Source: Bacteroidota bacterium (GTDB taxonomy: Bacteria > Bacteroidota > Bacteroidia > Sphingobacteriales > Sphingobacteriaceae). From it: a stretch of 64,000 nt of DNA. Every line of letters begins with the position of its first letter. Within the stretch, counting starts at the first letter, position 1. The translations under genes were made by a program, and so were the position numbers. The stretch spans positions 390 to 64,389 of the forward strand of contig JAZKAO010000029.1 in NCBI GenBank assembly GCA_040389105.1. The letters are read 5' to 3'. Positions 906 through 58,587 of the stretch are shown here, piece after piece. The notes under the pieces are model-generated. The model ran no database searches. It was not told where the DNA came from and worked only from the letters and a program-made list of their open reading frames with translations.

Positions 906-2756
906 ATGAATGATTTAATGTATCACCTATGGTGGGCTGTGCCCGTTGTGGCCGCTTTGTTGCTTTACAAATCTGTATTGCGCGTGTTTTTTGGTATGAT
1001 CATCGTCCCCGACGATCGTATTGGCCTGGTTGTAAAAAAGTTTACCCTTTACGGGGATAACCGTATGCCCGACGGCCGTATTATTGCCACCCATGGCGAG
1101 GCCGGTATGCAGGCCAAACCACTGGCCCCGGGTTTGTACTGGCGTATGTGGCCATGGCAATATGGCATTACTATGGAAGCTTTTACCATCATAGAACAAG
1201 GCAAGCTTGGGCTGGTAAAAGCAAAGGACGGCGCACCAATGGATACCGGCCGTGTGCTGGGTAAACCGGTTGATTGCGACAAGTTTCAGGATGCGCAGGC
1301 GTTTCTTGAAAACAATGGGCAAAGGGGCCCGCAGGCGGCCTTTTTAACCCCGGGTAGCTACCGTATCAACACTTTCCTTTTTGAGATTGTGATGGTGCCT
1401 ATTACCCAGGTACACGAAAACAAGGTGGGTATTATTACCACTTTGGATGGCGAGCCTTTAGATAAGGGCGAAATTGCCGGCGGCCCTATTGCTGGTCACC
1501 GTAACTACCAGGATCCGATGGCATTTATTGAAGCCGGCGGTAAAAAGGGTTTGCAAGAGGATGTTATCCTTGCCGGTACCTATTACCTTAACCCCTGGTT
1601 TGTACTGGTGGAACAGGTGGAGATGATGCACATCCCTATTGGTTTTGTGGGCGTGGTTAACTCGTTCGTTGGTCCTGAGGGTAAAGATACCAGCGGCATG
1701 GGCTTTAAACACGGTAATATTGTTGCCCGTAACGAAAAAGGTGTTTGGAACGATCCGTTAGACCCCGGTAAGCACCCGGTGAACATTTATACCCACACGG
1801 TAGAAATTGTCCCTACAACCAACATTGTGCTGAACTGGGCCAATAGCCGCACCGAATCGCACGAGTTGGATAAAAACCTGTGTACCATAAGTGTGCGTTC
1901 ATCCGATGGTTTTACCTTTAATTTGGACGTATCGCAGATCATCCACATCCCGCACAACGAGGCACCTAAGGTAATAGCCCGTTTCGGTAACATGAAAAAC
2001 CTGGTATCGCAGGTGTTGGAGCCTACTATTGCCAACTACTTCCGTAACTCGGCGCAAAAAAGTGGTGTGATAGAGTTTTTAACCAACCGTTCGCAAAGGC
2101 AAGAGGATGCCAAGAACCAGATAGCCGCTGTATTAAGCGCTTATAACGTAGAGGGCGTAGATACGCTGATAGGCGACATTGTGCCACCGGAAGCATTGAT
2201 GAAAACCTTAACCGACCGTAAAATAGCCGAGGAAGAAAAGATGACTTACGAGATACAACGTAACGCGCAGGTAGAGCGTAAGGAATTTGAAAGCGCTAAG
2301 GCCGGTGCCGATATGCAGCCCGAGGTGGTAAAATCAACCCGCCAGGTAGAGATCAACACCCAAATGGCTGCTGCCAAGGTAGCATCGGCAAAGGGTGATG
2401 CCGAATCGAAAACGATTAACGCCAAGGCCGATGCCGAAGTGCAAACCATTAACTCCAAGGCTAACGCCTTAGCCACCGAAGTGAACGGTAACGCCGATGC
2501 TGGTAAAATTAAAGCAATAGGTTTGGCCGAAGCCGAGGTAACCAAGCAAAAAACCGAAGCCATGGGTACCGAACAATACGCCATAGTACGTGTAGCCGAA
2601 GCCCTGGCCCAAAACGGTGTAAAACTGGTGCCAGAGATATTGGTAAGCGGCCAAAACGGCGGCGGTAACGGCCTGATAGATGCCCTGATAGGCAGCGAAA
2701 TGCTGAAGAAACTGAAGGAGGAGAATGGCAAGCATGTAGTTGATAAGGCTGAATAA
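906..2756 (+). CDS. SPFH (band 7/flotillin) domain protein with N-terminal TM, four tandem beta-repeats and C-terminal coiled coil
   Basis: 616 aa ORF; SPFH core (SVRSSDGFTFNLDVSQIIHI...LEPTIANYFRN), Ala/Glu-rich flotillin-like tail. Confidence 0.85.
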   Translation: MNDLMYHLWWAVPVVAALLLYKSVLRVFFGMIIVPDDRIGLVVKKFTLYGDNRMPDGRIIATHGEAGMQAKPLAPGLYWRMWPWQYGITMEAFTIIEQGKLGLVKAKDGAPMDTGRVLGKPVDCDKFQDAQAFLENNGQRGPQAAFLTPGSYRINTFLFEIVMVPITQVHENKVGIITTLDGEPLDKGEIAGGPIAGHRNYQDPMAFIEAGGKKGLQEDVILAGTYYLNPWFVLVEQVEMMHIPIGFVGVVNSFVGPEGKDTSGMGFKHGNIVARNEKGVWNDPLDPGKHPVNIYTHTVEIVPTTNIVLNWANSRTESHELDKNLCTISVRSSDGFTFNLDVSQIIHIPHNEAPKVIARFGNMKNLVSQVLEPTIANYFRNSAQKSGVIEFLTNRSQRQEDAKNQIAAVLSAYNVEGVDTLIGDIVPPEALMKTLTDRKIAEEEKMTYEIQRNAQVERKEFESAKAGADMQPEVVKSTRQVEINTQMAAAKVASAKGDAESKTINAKADAEVQTINSKANALATEVNGNADAGKIKAIGLAEAEVTKQKTEAMGTEQYAIVRVAEALAQNGVKLVPEILVSGQNGGGNGLIDALIGSEMLKKLKEENGKHVVDKAE

Positions 2757-2789
2757 GTAAGGCTTAGTTAAAAAGGGTGGGCTTGTGCG

Positions 2790-2898
2790 ATTCCCTCCCA
2801 CAGGGAGGGTGGAGGGAGGGGTTAACAAGCGTGCATAGTGCAGAAACCCCTCCCTGCCACAACACAAGCCTCCGCACCCCCTCCCTGTGGGAGGGAAT
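2790..2898. repeat. CCCTCCC-type hairpin repeat element
   Basis: 20 bp inverted repeat ATTCCCTCCCACAGGGAGGG (2790-2809) / 2879-2898 with an inner GAGGGGTT...AACCCCTC stem. Confidence 0.8.
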
Positions 2899-2910
2899 TT
2901 AAAAAAAAAG

Positions 2911-2938
2911 AAACGGCCCCGGGTAACCGGGGCCGTTT
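2911..2938. terminator. Bidirectional intrinsic terminator
   Basis: 12 bp stem AAACGGCCCCGG-gtaa-CCGGGGCCGTTT between convergent genes. Confidence 0.8.
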
Positions 2939-2964
2939 TCCATTAAACCAAAAATAAACTATTA

Positions 2965-3282
2965 TTAACTGATGAGGGTTGATCCTTTTTGGGCGGGTTT
3001 ATGCGAACCCCACAGAATGGTTAATTGCACCGTGCGGCAATATTTTTTTGCAGCTTCGATAAAATTTTTGGTGGCAATTTCGCGGCAATCCTTTTCCAGC
3101 ATCTGGCGGTTAAACGTGCCGTACCAAACATTGTTTAATTCTTCGCCCGGGCTGGTGATGCGTGTCCAGTTGCGCTGGTTCAGCATCGCGTAAATTTCGC
3201 TGGCCTGTTCTGCAGTAGTCCCCGGGAATTCGGCACATACCATAATGTGGTTCATATTCTTGTTTTTATAAGTTAGATGCAT
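2965..3282 (-). CDS. Small hypothetical protein (start may be 3255)
   Basis: 105 aa ORF filling the gap between SPFH and DUF2130 genes and ending at the terminator; no family recognised. Confidence 0.55.
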   Translation of the reverse strand: MHLTYKNKNMNHIMVCAEFPGTTAEQASEIYAMLNQRNWTRITSPGEELNNVWYGTFNRQMLEKDCREIATKNFIEAAKKYCRTVQLTILWGSHKPAQKGSTLIS

Positions 3283-54588: not shown

Positions 54589-55071
54589 TTAGCGCCGTTG
54601 CAGGGTGATGAATGAGTAGGGGATGGCGTGCTTTTCGTCGGTCCCGTGGTCTTCCCGTTCGGTCTCTGCCCACTCGTGGTAATTAATGGACGGGAAAAAG
54701 GCATCGGCATCAAATTCCTGGTGTACAATGGTTAAATAAATGCGGTTAGTTACCGGCATAGCCAGTTTATAAATTTCGGCGCCGCCTACAATAAATACTT
54801 CGGGCTCACCCGTACATAAGACCAGTGCTTCATCAACAGATGCTACTACCTCGCAACCTTCAATAGCTATTTTTTGGCGGGTGATGATAATATTGCGGCG
54901 GTTAGGCAGGGGTTTACCCACCGAATCATAAGTTTTGCGGCCCATAATTACGGTATGCCCGGTGGTGATCTGCCTAAAATGCTTCAGATCGTTAGGCAAA
55001 CGCCATAACAATTCATTATTTTTGCCAATGGCATTATTTTCGGCTATGGCTACTACGGCGGATATGATCAT
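54589..55071 (-). CDS. folA: Dihydrofolate reductase
   Basis: AIG.NN.LLW.LP.DL.HF, IMGRKT, PLPNRRNII, IVGGAEIY. Confidence 0.97.
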   Translation of the reverse strand: MIISAVVAIAENNAIGKNNELLWRLPNDLKHFRQITTGHTVIMGRKTYDSVGKPLPNRRNIIITRQKIAIEGCEVVASVDEALVLCTGEPEVFIVGGAEIYKLAMPVTNRIYLTIVHQEFDADAFFPSINYHEWAETEREDHGTDEKHAIPYSFITLQRR

Positions 55072-55445
55072 ATAGAAATTGCTTTTGCTTCGAGCCAGGC
55101 TTTGATCTCATCAAAACGAATTTCGCCCATGCTTGCAGAGATCACAAAATCGTACTGATCATTTTGACTAACGTTAATAATTAATTGGTTTTGAGCCAAT
55201 ATTAAAAGCATTAAACCATAAGCTATACGCTTATTGCCATCAACAAAAGGATGGTTGATTATCAGACTTTCAAGTATTGCCGCCGCCTTATCAATTGGAG
55301 ATGGATAAAGATCTTGTTCATCAAATGTCATGTACGGACGAGCAAGGGCTGCTTCTAATCCTCCTAAATCTCTAACACCCATACTTCCGCCAAATTGATC
55401 TATTAACTTGTTATGGCGCCTTATAGCCTCATTAACAGTGATCAT
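55068..55445 (-). CDS. doc: Doc (death-on-curing, Fic superfamily) toxin
   Basis: GVRD.G.LEAALARP, KAAA..ESL, HPFVDGNKRIA. Confidence 0.92.
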   Translation of the reverse strand: MITVNEAIRRHNKLIDQFGGSMGVRDLGGLEAALARPYMTFDEQDLYPSPIDKAAAILESLIINHPFVDGNKRIAYGLMLLILAQNQLIINVSQNDQYDFVISASMGEIRFDEIKAWLEAKAISI

Positions 55446-55630
55446 TTAGCAAGTCGTTCAAATACTTCTTTGTTGTCGGCTATGATTTTTTCGAAAAGTT
55501 GATCGCGTTTTAACTCTTCTTCAGAACGTTCCTGAATTTCCTTTAATAGTTTGAAGGCTTCCTGCAATGCACTTTCAGGGATATGATCTATCACTTTGTG
55601 CATTTCAGTTTTTATTTCTATCGCTGTCAT
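55442..55630 (-). CDS. Putative antitoxin of Doc (62 aa)
   Basis: Small helical ORF directly upstream of doc with ATGA overlap; C-terminal IIADNKEVFERLAK resembles Doc-binding helices. Confidence 0.75.
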   Translation of the reverse strand: MTAIEIKTEMHKVIDHIPESALQEAFKLLKEIQERSEEELKRDQLFEKIIADNKEVFERLAK

Positions 55631-55667
55631 AACTCAAAAATACAAAAAACTTAATATTAAAGCAAAA

Positions 55668-56489
55668 TTACACCGCCACCGCCCCTTTAATATGCGGCCA
55701 TGGATCGTAATTCTCCAACGTAAAATCCTCAAACTTAAAATCAAAGATATCCTTTACATCCGGATTGATCTTCATTGTAGGTAGGGGCCTCGGTTCGCGG
55801 CTTAGTTGCAGGTTGGTTTGCTCGATATGGTTATTGTACAAATGCGCGTCGCCAAAGGTGTGGATAAAGTCGCCGTAATCCAGATCGCAAACCTGTGCCA
55901 TCATCATGGTCAGTAACGCGTACGATGCAACGTTGAATGGCACGCCCAAAAATATATCTGCGCTGCGCTGGTATAATTGGCAGGATAGTTTGCCTCTCAG
56001 TTCGCCCTTCAGCGGGTCAGGAGGCGCTACATAAAACTGGAACAGGCTATGGCATGGCGGTAGGGCCATGTGTTCTACATCACCCACATTCCAGGCCGAT
56101 ACCATAATGCGGCGCGAATCGGGATTGTTCTTTAGCGTTTTCACTACCTGGCTAATCTGATCGATATGCCGTCCATCAGGCGTAGGCCACGATCTCCATT
56201 GGTAACCATAAACCGGCCCCAGGTTGCCATCGGCATCGGCCCATTCATCCCATATTTTTACGCCATTATCTTTCAGATATTTGATGTTGGTATCCCCGCT
56301 TAAAAACCAGATCAACTCGTGGATGATGGATTTCAGGTGCAGTTTTTTTGTCGTCACCAGTGGAAAGCCCCCTTGTAAATTAAAACGCATTTGGTAGCCA
56401 AACACACTGATGGTGCCTGTGCCGGTACGGTCGTGCTTTTGGGCGCCGTTTTCCAGTACGTGGCGCATCAGGTCGAGATATTGTTTCAT
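55668..56489 (-). CDS. thyA: Thymidylate synthase
   Basis: [40 protein letters not shown]. Confidence 0.98.
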
Positions 56490-56491
56490 GC

Positions 56492-56580
56492 TTGAGTTGG
56501 ATTAGGTTGATTGGGTTGAATAAGTGAATGGTTGGAAAATAACTTAATCCAACTCAATCAACATAATCAACTCAATCAAC
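56492..56580. repeat. Inverted array of CAACWYAAT 9-mers in the thyA/ispE divergent region
   Basis: 13 bp perfect IR 56492-56504 / 56545-56557; CAACTCAAT CAACATAAT CAACTCAAT. Confidence 0.8.
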
Positions 56581-56657
56581 AACCGACCACAAAGAAAAAT
56601 AATCTATTTTTGGTATCCTACGGATGTTTAAAAATACAGGCTGTTGTTAAGAGAATT

Positions 56658-57461
56658 ATGATCACATTCCCAAACGCAAAAATCAATATTGGCTTAAATG
56701 TTACCGCGCGCCGCCCAGATGGTTACCACAATTTGGAAACGGTGTTTTATCCGGTTAAAATTTATGATGCGTTGGAAATTATCCAGGCCGGTGAAATAGG
56801 TTTCAACGCGTCGGGACTGGGTATTCCGGGCAGGGTAGCGGATAACCTTTGCCTGAAGGGATACGATCTGCTGAAAAAAGATTTCGACCTGCCGCCTGTA
56901 AGTATCCACCTGCATAAGCACATCCCGATAGGGGCTGGACTGGGAGGCGGATCGGCCGATGCTGCGTTTTTTATCAAACTGCTAAATCAAGAGTTTTCTT
57001 TAGGATTAGATGCCGAACAGATACGTGCCTATGTGCGTGTTTTGGGAGCCGATTGCGCGTTTTTTGTGGAAAGCAAACCGGTGTTTGCGTTTGGCAAGGG
57101 CGATGAGTTTGAACCGATCGTATTAGACTTATCGGCCTACCACATCGCATTAATAATGCCCCCGGCACATGTATCAACTGCCGAGGCTTACCGTGGCGTA
57201 AAACCAAAGCCTGCCGGGGCATCATTGAAAGAACTGATATCCCTGCCGGTGATGGAGTGGAAACATCAAATTAAAAACGATTTTGAAGAATCGATATTCA
57301 GGAACCACGCCGTAATAAGAGGGGCGAAGGCTGCCTTATATGAGGCCGGTGCCTTATACGCCAGCATGAGTGGGAGCGGGGCTTCCGTATTCGGCATATT
57401 CAAAGATCAACCCGATTTATCGGGACTGGAAAAGGATAACCAGGTTTTCTATAATGTTTAA
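56658..57461 (+). CDS. ispE: 4-diphosphocytidyl-2-C-methyl-D-erythritol kinase
   Basis: MITFPNAKINIGL, GYHNLET, IPIGAGLGGGSADAA, SMSGSGA. Confidence 0.95.
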   Translation: MITFPNAKINIGLNVTARRPDGYHNLETVFYPVKIYDALEIIQAGEIGFNASGLGIPGRVADNLCLKGYDLLKKDFDLPPVSIHLHKHIPIGAGLGGGSADAAFFIKLLNQEFSLGLDAEQIRAYVRVLGADCAFFVESKPVFAFGKGDEFEPIVLDLSAYHIALIMPPAHVSTAEAYRGVKPKPAGASLKELISLPVMEWKHQIKNDFEESIFRNHAVIRGAKAALYEAGALYASMSGSGASVFGIFKDQPDLSGLEKDNQVFYNV

Positions 57462-57815: not shown

Positions 57816-58587
57816 GGCCTTGTTTTTTGTTTAAGCTGGTATCTAATATCAGGTTTTAAAATGTTTATTAAAAACAAATTTAGGGGCGGGGTGATGTGCG
57901 TAACTCTTTCGGTACCCCGTTGTGCGGGACACGGTCTGCTCCTTATCTAATGCCATATCATCATCCCGATAAATTTGTGCTATAAGAACTTCGTTTTTTT
58001 AGGATTTTTAAAACAAGAAAATTAGTTGCCAGGGAACCGGTCGGCTTTCTTTTTCATCCGCAATGCCACCATTTTAATACACTATTGATTTGTTTTGAAC
58101 GCTTAAATTGAGATGTGCTTTTAAAGTTTAATTTAGTTGAGTTAAATTATTGATTTATAAATATATAAACTAATATATTATAGTGAAAAACGGCTATTGC
58201 TAAAATTGTTAGATTTTTAATTTTTTGATATGCTGTATTATATAATTAACTGCTTTAATATACTGTTGTAATTATTTGATTTTTAATTAATTAAAATTTA
58301 GTAAATTAACTGTAAAGGTAATTATATACAAGTATAACCCGCTGGTGTTAGTTATATATAATTAACTAATAATGAGTATTTTAATATAATTGGATTTGTT
58401 TTGGTGTAATTTGATGATTTTAGATTATTATTTACCCTTTTTTGAACACTAACAGTATGCTGTAAAGTGATGCCCATAGTTAATAAACCCTTTGAGTTGT
58501 TGCCCTCAAATTTTCAGAAATGTATACGGATGGTGTTGTTTAAATTGGTATTTCAGGGGGCTGGTTACTCCCCTACCCGCACGTAAA

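Follow-up and report, generated by a model that had tools for sequence, protein, structure and literature searches.

A Doc-type toxin-antitoxin cassette with a predicted non-Phd antitoxin and leaderless promoter, probably an old passenger of the thyA-folA slot in one genus of Sphingobacteriaceae

A Doc-type toxin-antitoxin pair was analyzed that lies between the genes of thymidylate synthase (thyA) and dihydrofolate reductase (folA) on a 64,000-nt stretch of contig JAZKAO010000029.1 (assembly GCA_040389105.1), referred to here as the window. The pair is probably an old Doc cassette with a non-Phd antitoxin and its own promoter, carried as a passenger of the thyA-folA slot. All four genes are located on the minus strand, in the order thyA (55668-56489, 273 aa; PF00303 at 1e-129, NF002497 at 7e-147), which is the first gene of the unit, antitoxin (55442-55630, 62 aa), doc (55068-55445, 125 aa) and folA (54589-55071, 160 aa; PF00186 at 1.7e-62). 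Antitoxin and doc share an ATGA overlap at 55442-55445, and the folA start ATG overlaps the doc stop in the same way at 55068-55071. GC content was 0.36-0.39 for the pair vs 0.45-0.53 for thyA and folA. No transposase was seen near the pair in the open reading frame (ORF) list of the window, and no target-site repeats bracketing the pair were obtained in a repeat search of the window. Gene order, both overlaps, the AT-rich composition, the lack of transposase and target repeats, and the assignment as a Doc-type toxin-antitoxin pair were all as stated in the original prediction, which had been made from the DNA sequence without database searches.

For comparison within the genus, 52 loci were used (the window, L025 and 50 others), representing about 50 genomes; one genome contributed both L108 and L109, which are two copies, and L025 does not differ from L111 over this stretch. 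The genus is probably Mucilaginibacter, the label carried by L025, a metagenome-assembled genome (MAG) with the same arrangement.

Every sequence test run places the toxin in the Doc family. PF02661 (Fic/DOC) was matched at 1.6e-17 (64.5 bits, cut-off 24) and TIGR01550 (DOC_P1) at 1e-12 (48.3 bits, curated cut-off 38.65). Solved Doc chains were matched as well (9vzc, E 2.5e-6; P1 Doc 3k33, E 3.4e-6; 3dd7, E 2.9e-5). The Doc form of the Fic motif is HxFx(D/E)(G/A)NKR, with Lys preceding Arg. Residues 65-73 of the toxin read HPFVDGNKR, and H65, F67, D69, G70, K72 and R73 were invariant in 21 sequences. The motif was present in 49 of the 52 genus loci, two of the three exceptions being the broken genes of L113 and L119. 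The doc gene is single-copy in its genome. By homology to the Doc proteins of phage P1 and Salmonella, the toxin would be a kinase that phosphorylates EF-Tu and thereby stops translation. Passages of PMC9207808 describe, for these two proteins, phosphorylation of EF-Tu on a conserved threonine and growth arrest.

The small ORF upstream of doc matched no Pfam or NCBIfam family above cut-off. An alignment of 23 antitoxin orthologues and homologues (A1) showed conservation of an N-terminal pattern and of the C-terminus, which has the form ...EDxELLEKLAQ. Searched as a profile, A1 matched 1103 clusters (50% identity representatives) at E<=0.001 and 621 at E<=1e-10, and the best 150 were mostly exactly 62 aa long. 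A word-based protein search with the antitoxin returned only 8 close relatives, all with uninformative names. A weak similarity of the N-terminal part to DUF2281 (PF10047) was found, which 12 of the 23 family members matched at E<=1 (best 2.3e-4), all below the Pfam gathering score.

The N-terminus of Phd/YefM antitoxins is an alpha/beta dimerization and DNA-binding domain. For the corresponding family (PF02604), the window antitoxin gave no match, and the family was absent from the 25 most frequent of 48 families for the 23 members. The A1 profile matched no Phd chain in the Protein Data Bank (PDB) at E<=10, matches there being at chance level only. In the AlphaFold model (mean pLDDT 84.7), the antitoxin consists of helices 3-14, 19-33, 37-52 and 54-61 and has no strand, and a Foldseek search of the PDB with this model returned no match at E<=0.001. 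A DNA-binding, autoregulatory N-terminal domain is therefore not evident, in agreement with the earlier proposal that the antitoxin lacks a Phd domain and is of a non-Phd type.

For the antitoxin-Doc complex, an ipSAE of 0.89 was obtained in three of three runs, and the best of three controls reached 0.00; in calibration, the ipSAE mark was reached by 116 of 157 solved complexes and 2 of 215 mismatched pairs. Partner pLDDT was at least 85, and contacts agreed between runs. Antitoxin residues 39-61 contacted Doc residues 2-20, 70, 72-73, 76-85 and 94-101 and covered the catalytic-motif residues G70, K72 and R73. Since Phd-Doc has already been solved, this prediction shows likeness, not proof. 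In the Phd-Doc complex, Phd residues 52-73 form two helices with a kink on Doc (passages of PMC9207808). The antitoxin is accordingly modelled as a non-Phd, four-helix protein, the last two helices of which are predicted to lie over the Doc active-site loop like the Phd C-terminus. Gene order and the antitoxin/doc ATGA overlap were kept in 43 of 44 genus loci and in 7 of 8 others (exception L119, with a broken doc start).

The cassette is predicted from sequence to have its own sigma-A promoter and a leaderless mRNA. According to passages of PMC7366714, the Bacteroidota sigma-A consensus is TAnnTTTG, with an additional TTTG near -33; in Flavobacterium, the box is placed at -12 to -5 (passages of PMC9723704). 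In the window, TATTTTTG (55635-55642, minus strand) is a putative sigma-A type -7 box located 4 nt before the antitoxin ATG, in a place that is conserved in the genus: TAnnTTTG ended 3-5 nt upstream of the antitoxin ATG in 52 of 52 loci, and the spacer, scored automatically in 44 loci, was 3 nt in 25, 4 nt in 7 and 5 nt in 12. Upstream of the box, the loci were otherwise diverse (50 distinct 35-mers; thyA-antitoxin spacers of 19-834 nt), with a TTG at -38 to -27 in 31 of 52. The same box-to-ATG arrangement was found in all six loci of other genera with a detected antitoxin and in 4 of 10 loci of other Bacteroidota, so the box belongs to the cassette. With the G of TATTTTTG at -5, the predicted transcription start (+1) coincides with the first base of the antitoxin ATG, at 55630, and a leaderless mRNA is thus predicted. 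For comparison, 5' UTRs under 10 nt make up 3.7% in B. thetaiotaomicron, and leaderless mRNAs 5.5% in F. psychrophilum, as given in passages of PMC7366714 and PMC9723704, respectively.

A -7 box had previously been assigned to the thyA stop codon. The sequence is present (TAATTTTG, 55663-55670, minus strand, 20 nt upstream of TATTTTTG) and contains the stop codon; the conserved -7 box is TATTTTTG by the antitoxin ATG, and the box at the thyA stop recurred in just 2 of 11 orthologous loci. Its TTTG (55663-55666) is located at -36 to -33 relative to the predicted start at 55630, and from this position TAATTTTG is read as the -33 element of the conserved promoter in this genome. Two further candidates were discarded. 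A scan for sigma-70 promoters, which have no relevance in this phylum, gave 7 sites vs 7.3 expected. Between the two boxes lies the palindrome TTAATATTAA, which was considered as an operator; it is not conserved in the other 51 promoters, and autoregulation is not claimed.

For the age of the arrangement, 200 other species of the same genus were searched at the DNA level. A single contiguous match over thyA-antitoxin-doc-folA was obtained in 52 of them among the matches listed, at about 68-75% DNA identity. In three more genomes (G189, G131 and G048) the match reached query position ~1275 only, yet all four genes were present, and G009 had all four genes with a 419-nt spacer after thyA. The arrangement is thus shared by at least 56 of 200 congeners. 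Five of the 200 genomes, with completeness of 61-82%, gave no match at all. Protein identities between orthologous loci were 54-65% for Doc, 30-45% for the antitoxin, 85-89% for ThyA and 63-76% for FolA. Median pairwise dN/dS (0.05 < dS < 1.5) was 0.24 for doc (22 pairs), 0.40 for the antitoxin (114 pairs), 0.047 for thyA (138 pairs) and 0.084 for folA (65 pairs), values that are rough because dS is near saturation (about 1.3). This sample excludes five loci that were set aside in advance, namely broken doc genes and a duplicate copy, and one more that a filter on doc start and length removed. The pair is constrained, though far less than thyA and folA. In genome G209, the whole four-gene stretch occurs twice on contig C1 (336350-338240 and 475470-477360, loci L108 and L109), with identical scores and 139 kb apart, either as a large duplication or as an assembly artefact.

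By these sequence comparisons, the cassette is old in the slot and not a recent insertion. The original prediction had implied the latter. A recent horizontal insertion of an AT-rich foreign island into adjacent thyA and folA genes would account for the lower GC of the pair, for members of the cassette family in unrelated contexts in other Bacteroidota, and for the relatives closest in thyA being without a cassette. It is extremely unlikely given same-slot orthologues in so many congeners that have diverged this far in Doc and antitoxin, decayed remnants in sister species (see below), and the lack of flanking repeats or mobility genes. In the congeners L014, L016, L018 and L146, the thyA-folA spacer consists of 45-220 nt of non-coding sequence only.

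The cassette family is, judged by sequence, common in Bacteroidota. An antitoxin-Doc pair with ATGA overlap was also found in Maribacter, Chitinophaga, Cyclobacteriaceae and several MAGs. In 10 cassette loci from other Bacteroidota, neither thyA nor folA was present within 2.5-kb flanks, and the neighbours in the two loci inspected were unrelated genes. Within the same family, the Doc type was detected at E<=1e-20 in 7 of 188 genomes from other genera, none of these seven loci having thyA or folA within about 2 kb. Within the sample, the thyA-folA slot is genus-specific.

In the genus, the slot was found in many states. Antitoxin C-terminal remnants with doc gone were located in the thyA-folA spacers of L015, L019 and L020; doc was frameshifted or truncated in L006, L113 and L119, and was 116 aa long in L114. 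In L011, the slot holds a three-gene cassette of a small ORF, a RelE-like ORF (PF06296 at 3e-4, below cut-off) and, joined to folA by an ATGA overlap, a DUF2281-like ORF of 57-58 aa. In L145, a cassette of this type stands in tandem behind the Doc pair and beside a duplicated 19-codon folA start, which suggests that the second cassette was inserted by recombination at the folA start. This second small cassette (L145, 2873-3755; L011, oriented 2350-3086) has ORFs of 86, 111 (RelE-like) and 57 aa (DUF2281-like). A precise deletion of doc in L011 had been considered and was dropped, as L145 shows the small ORF before folA to be part of the three-gene RelE-like cassette. The slot of L147 holds a 282-aa ORF with no family, and that of L021 a gene for a 23S rRNA intervening-sequence protein (23S-IVP; 2371-2769, PF05635 at 1.3e-27). 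A similar ORF is present in L017 (2374-2589), which comes from the unpublished genome G002, and the 23S-IVP claim is made on L021 alone. In both L021 and L017, the 23S-IVP gene is flanked by inverted short-unit repeats resembling those of the leader and spacer hairpins described below. In L013, thyA and the antitoxin gene are separated by a 419-nt insert (oriented 2323-2741) in which a palindromic unit of the TTGACAAATTT...GTCAA type occurs twice and which resembles a small repeat element.

A flank tree was calculated from ThyA, FolA and SecDF (residues 1-330) for 21 loci. Cassette-bearing and cassette-free rows were interleaved, with at least 8 changes. Sister pairs differed in the state of the slot: L008 (intact) and L020 (remnant) were joined with support 100/99, L013 (intact) and L015 (remnant) with 96/95, and L009 (intact) and L011 (other cassette) with 98/91. 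The claim that the module is locked in was not upheld, as doc was lost, broken or replaced many times with folA intact; such repeated loss and replacement argues against lock-in. In a tree of antitoxin plus Doc, the genus pairs and three Sphingobacteriales-type MAG pairs formed one clade with support 97/96.

According to the preferred reading, that of an old passenger cassette, one cassette would have been captured in the thyA-folA spacer early in the genus. Vertical inheritance would have followed, with some interspecies exchange through the conserved flanks and frequent loss or replacement. Repeated capture instead of one early capture is possible. The unit would read thyA, cassette promoter, antitoxin, doc, folA, with folA transcribed from both the thyA and the cassette promoters; at the overlap of doc stop and folA start, termination-reinitiation could contribute to folA translation. 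In the simplest view, the pair would be an addiction module of a selfish or defensive kind within an essential, well-expressed operon, and not a regulator of folate supply.

Several points weigh against this reading. Toxicity, neutralization by the antitoxin, the target of the kinase, the start of transcription and co-transcription are inferences throughout, and the pair is a putative type II Doc module with binding predicted from the model. The window antitoxin itself has no DUF2281 match. The EF-Tu gene of the assembly is cut by the contig end at model position 343 of 394, before the target threonine. TAnnTTTG is not enriched in the window (80 matches vs 73.9 expected), so that the case for the promoter is built on the conserved place of the box. 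The branch uniting the thyA-folA-linked pairs in the antitoxin-plus-Doc tree is weak (52/36), and single capture is correspondingly weakly supported. The L007 cassette groups with L004 and L025 (98/91) and its flanks with L005, L006, L009 and L011 (100/99), from which some cassettes appear to have been exchanged or re-acquired. The congeners closest in ThyA, L146 (94% amino-acid identity) and L147 (92%), have no cassette. The roughness of the dN/dS values given above also counts here.

For transcription of folA, no TAnnTTTG was found on the minus strand between 55071 and 55634, and within 160 nt upstream of folA the motif occurred in just 1 of 11 loci. No terminator-like site was detected between the four genes (scan: 2 sites vs 2.8 expected). 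As had been claimed, the pair contains no separate box for folA, the start of which overlaps the stop codon of doc; folA would thus be transcribed through the pair, from the thyA and cassette promoters. The gene is the sole DHFR_1 (PF00186) gene found in a genome that is 96.9% complete, where no ThyX match was obtained either, and folA is probably essential.

The original prediction had gone further, with folA translation depending on ribosomes that pass through doc, so that the module would be locked in and folate supply tied to the toxin state. This is unlikely. The genes doc and folA meet in an ATGA overlap in 32 of the 52 loci, the window among them; a 1-nt overlap was found in 3, abutting genes in 1 and a gap of 1-30 nt in 15, and the remaining locus, with a broken doc, gave no call (four of the 52 junctions were read from the printed sequence). 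Termination-reinitiation is thus possible almost everywhere. Dependence is further favoured by L011 and L145, where the other cassette also ends in an ORF that overlaps folA by ATGA, by L006, where the broken doc still ends in an ORF overlapping folA, by the lack of a folA box inside the pair, and by folA being the only gene of its kind found. On the other hand, the 121 nt around the folA start were less structured than 198 of 200 shuffles (z +1.99). With this unoccluded start and the gaps in 15 of 52 loci, independent initiation is equally possible, and free initiation likely. The A that completes the TGA is a base of the second folA codon, kept in 8 of 9 cassette-free spacers, so any upstream frame entering the folA start would stop there and create the overlap. 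The Doc C-terminal tail also varies (total length 122-130 aa, with poorly conserved columns after W117), and doc was lost in many lineages with folA unharmed. From the sequence, translational coupling of folA to doc is plausible and need not be obligatory.

Long hairpins were noted around the same genes. In the cassette-free loci L016 (2335-2483) and L146 (1306-1440), the entire thyA-folA spacer folds into one long hairpin (z -4.74 and z -6.10, respectively). The folA ATG is part of the 3' arm of the L016 hairpin, so that, in contrast to the window, the folA start of L016 may be occluded. The thyA leader of the window forms an imperfect long hairpin (56490-56583, minus strand) that extends to the thyA ATG and includes inverted repeats I1, I2 and I5; its minimum free energy of -36.5 kcal/mol (z -4.87) was matched by none of 200 shuffles. 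This hairpin is made of short repeated units and recurs with different sequence in L008 (1395-1506, z -6.80) and L007 (1395-1506, z -3.14), and two weaker copies with 78% and 74% identity were found elsewhere in the genome. Against Rfam, the leader gave sub-threshold chance matches to animal and plant families only. Upstream of thyA, a divergent gene on the plus strand (56532-57461) is ispE-like by eye, and its true start probably lies downstream of the listed TTG; the gene would be served by a plus-strand TATTTTTG box (56605-56612). The region 58100-58400 is very AT-rich (GC 0.175-0.18) and contains no listed ORF of at least 40 aa except a 41-aa one at its edge.

A domesticated role was also considered, in which the pair acts as a brake: arrest would be coupled to the thymidylate operon and would limit thymineless death or antifolate killing, or would provide abortive-infection defence. 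The cassette was kept in at least 28% of sampled species with doc under purifying selection (omega about 0.24), and it occupies one slot only in the genus, whereas it lies elsewhere in other genera. Doc also gave weak matches to the candidate defence models PDC-S23 (2.4e-15) and PDC-M59B (1.9e-9), and a link of mazEF to thymineless death has been both claimed and disputed (passages of PMC7167474). Nevertheless, such a brake is quite unlikely: with a predicted promoter of its own, expression of the cassette would not be tied to thyA alone, and the slot, where the cassette has often been lost or has given way to unrelated cassettes, hairpins or a 23S-IVP gene, looks like a hot spot for passengers. 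In a related version, which is very unlikely, the leaderless cassette promoter would have become a main source of folA mRNA, and arrest of translation would be tied to failure of the operon because one transcript encodes both Doc and DHFR; when transcription stops, the labile antitoxin would decay and Doc would halt protein synthesis. If true, Doc arrest would protect the cell from unbalanced growth that is lethal in thymine starvation or antifolate exposure. The mazEF dispute, as represented in the passages named, is the only basis for reading arrest as tied to failure of the operon.

If the preferred reading of an old passenger cassette holds, Doc would be assigned as toxin partner to a large family of 62-residue proteins that has so far had no name (1103 clusters at 50% identity), together with a binding mode open to testing. 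The reading also predicts that the whole Bacteroidota cassette family is expressed from leaderless mRNAs, which are rare in the phylum. Within one genus, a natural series is available in the same essential operon slot, with intact cassette, broken toxin, remnants, another cassette or nothing, in which the effect of an embedded toxin-antitoxin pair on the expression balance of two cooperating enzymes could be followed. In full-text literature, with subscription journals outside the coverage, neither a published account of this antitoxin family with Doc nor one of a toxin-antitoxin pair between thyA and folA was found.

Compared to Phd-Doc of phage P1 and Salmonella (3K33), the pair has the same toxin fold and the Fic motif in its Doc variant; its antitoxin gene likewise precedes the toxin gene, which it overlaps by 4 nt, and the antitoxin is predicted from the model to neutralize via a kinked C-terminal helix pair over the active site. 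It differs in that the antitoxin has no Phd/YefM domain and no strand in its model, and in that a putative sigma-A box of the Bacteroidota type directly adjoins the ATG. Composite Doc modules have been reported before: in mazE-doc (tasA-tasB), Doc is paired with a non-Phd antitoxin (PMC1626090), and "Doc/HY" and "Doc/DUF6290" pairs were listed in a survey of Doc with other antitoxins (passages of PMC12654330). Unlike in these, the partner here comes from the 62-aa helical family. A DUF2281 protein neutralized a VapC toxin in E. coli, making VapC/DUF2281 a working module (also PMC12654330); the present antitoxin shares a weak N-terminal helix similarity with DUF2281 antitoxins, and its partner is Doc and not a PIN nuclease. 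As in the thyA-folA pairs of many bacteria, the two genes are neighbours and co-oriented with folA downstream of thyA, whereas here a toxin-antitoxin cassette with a predicted promoter of its own is interposed. Taken together, this is an ordinary kind of module (Doc, probably type II) in an unusual conserved place, with what would be a new antitoxin class and a predicted leaderless promoter.

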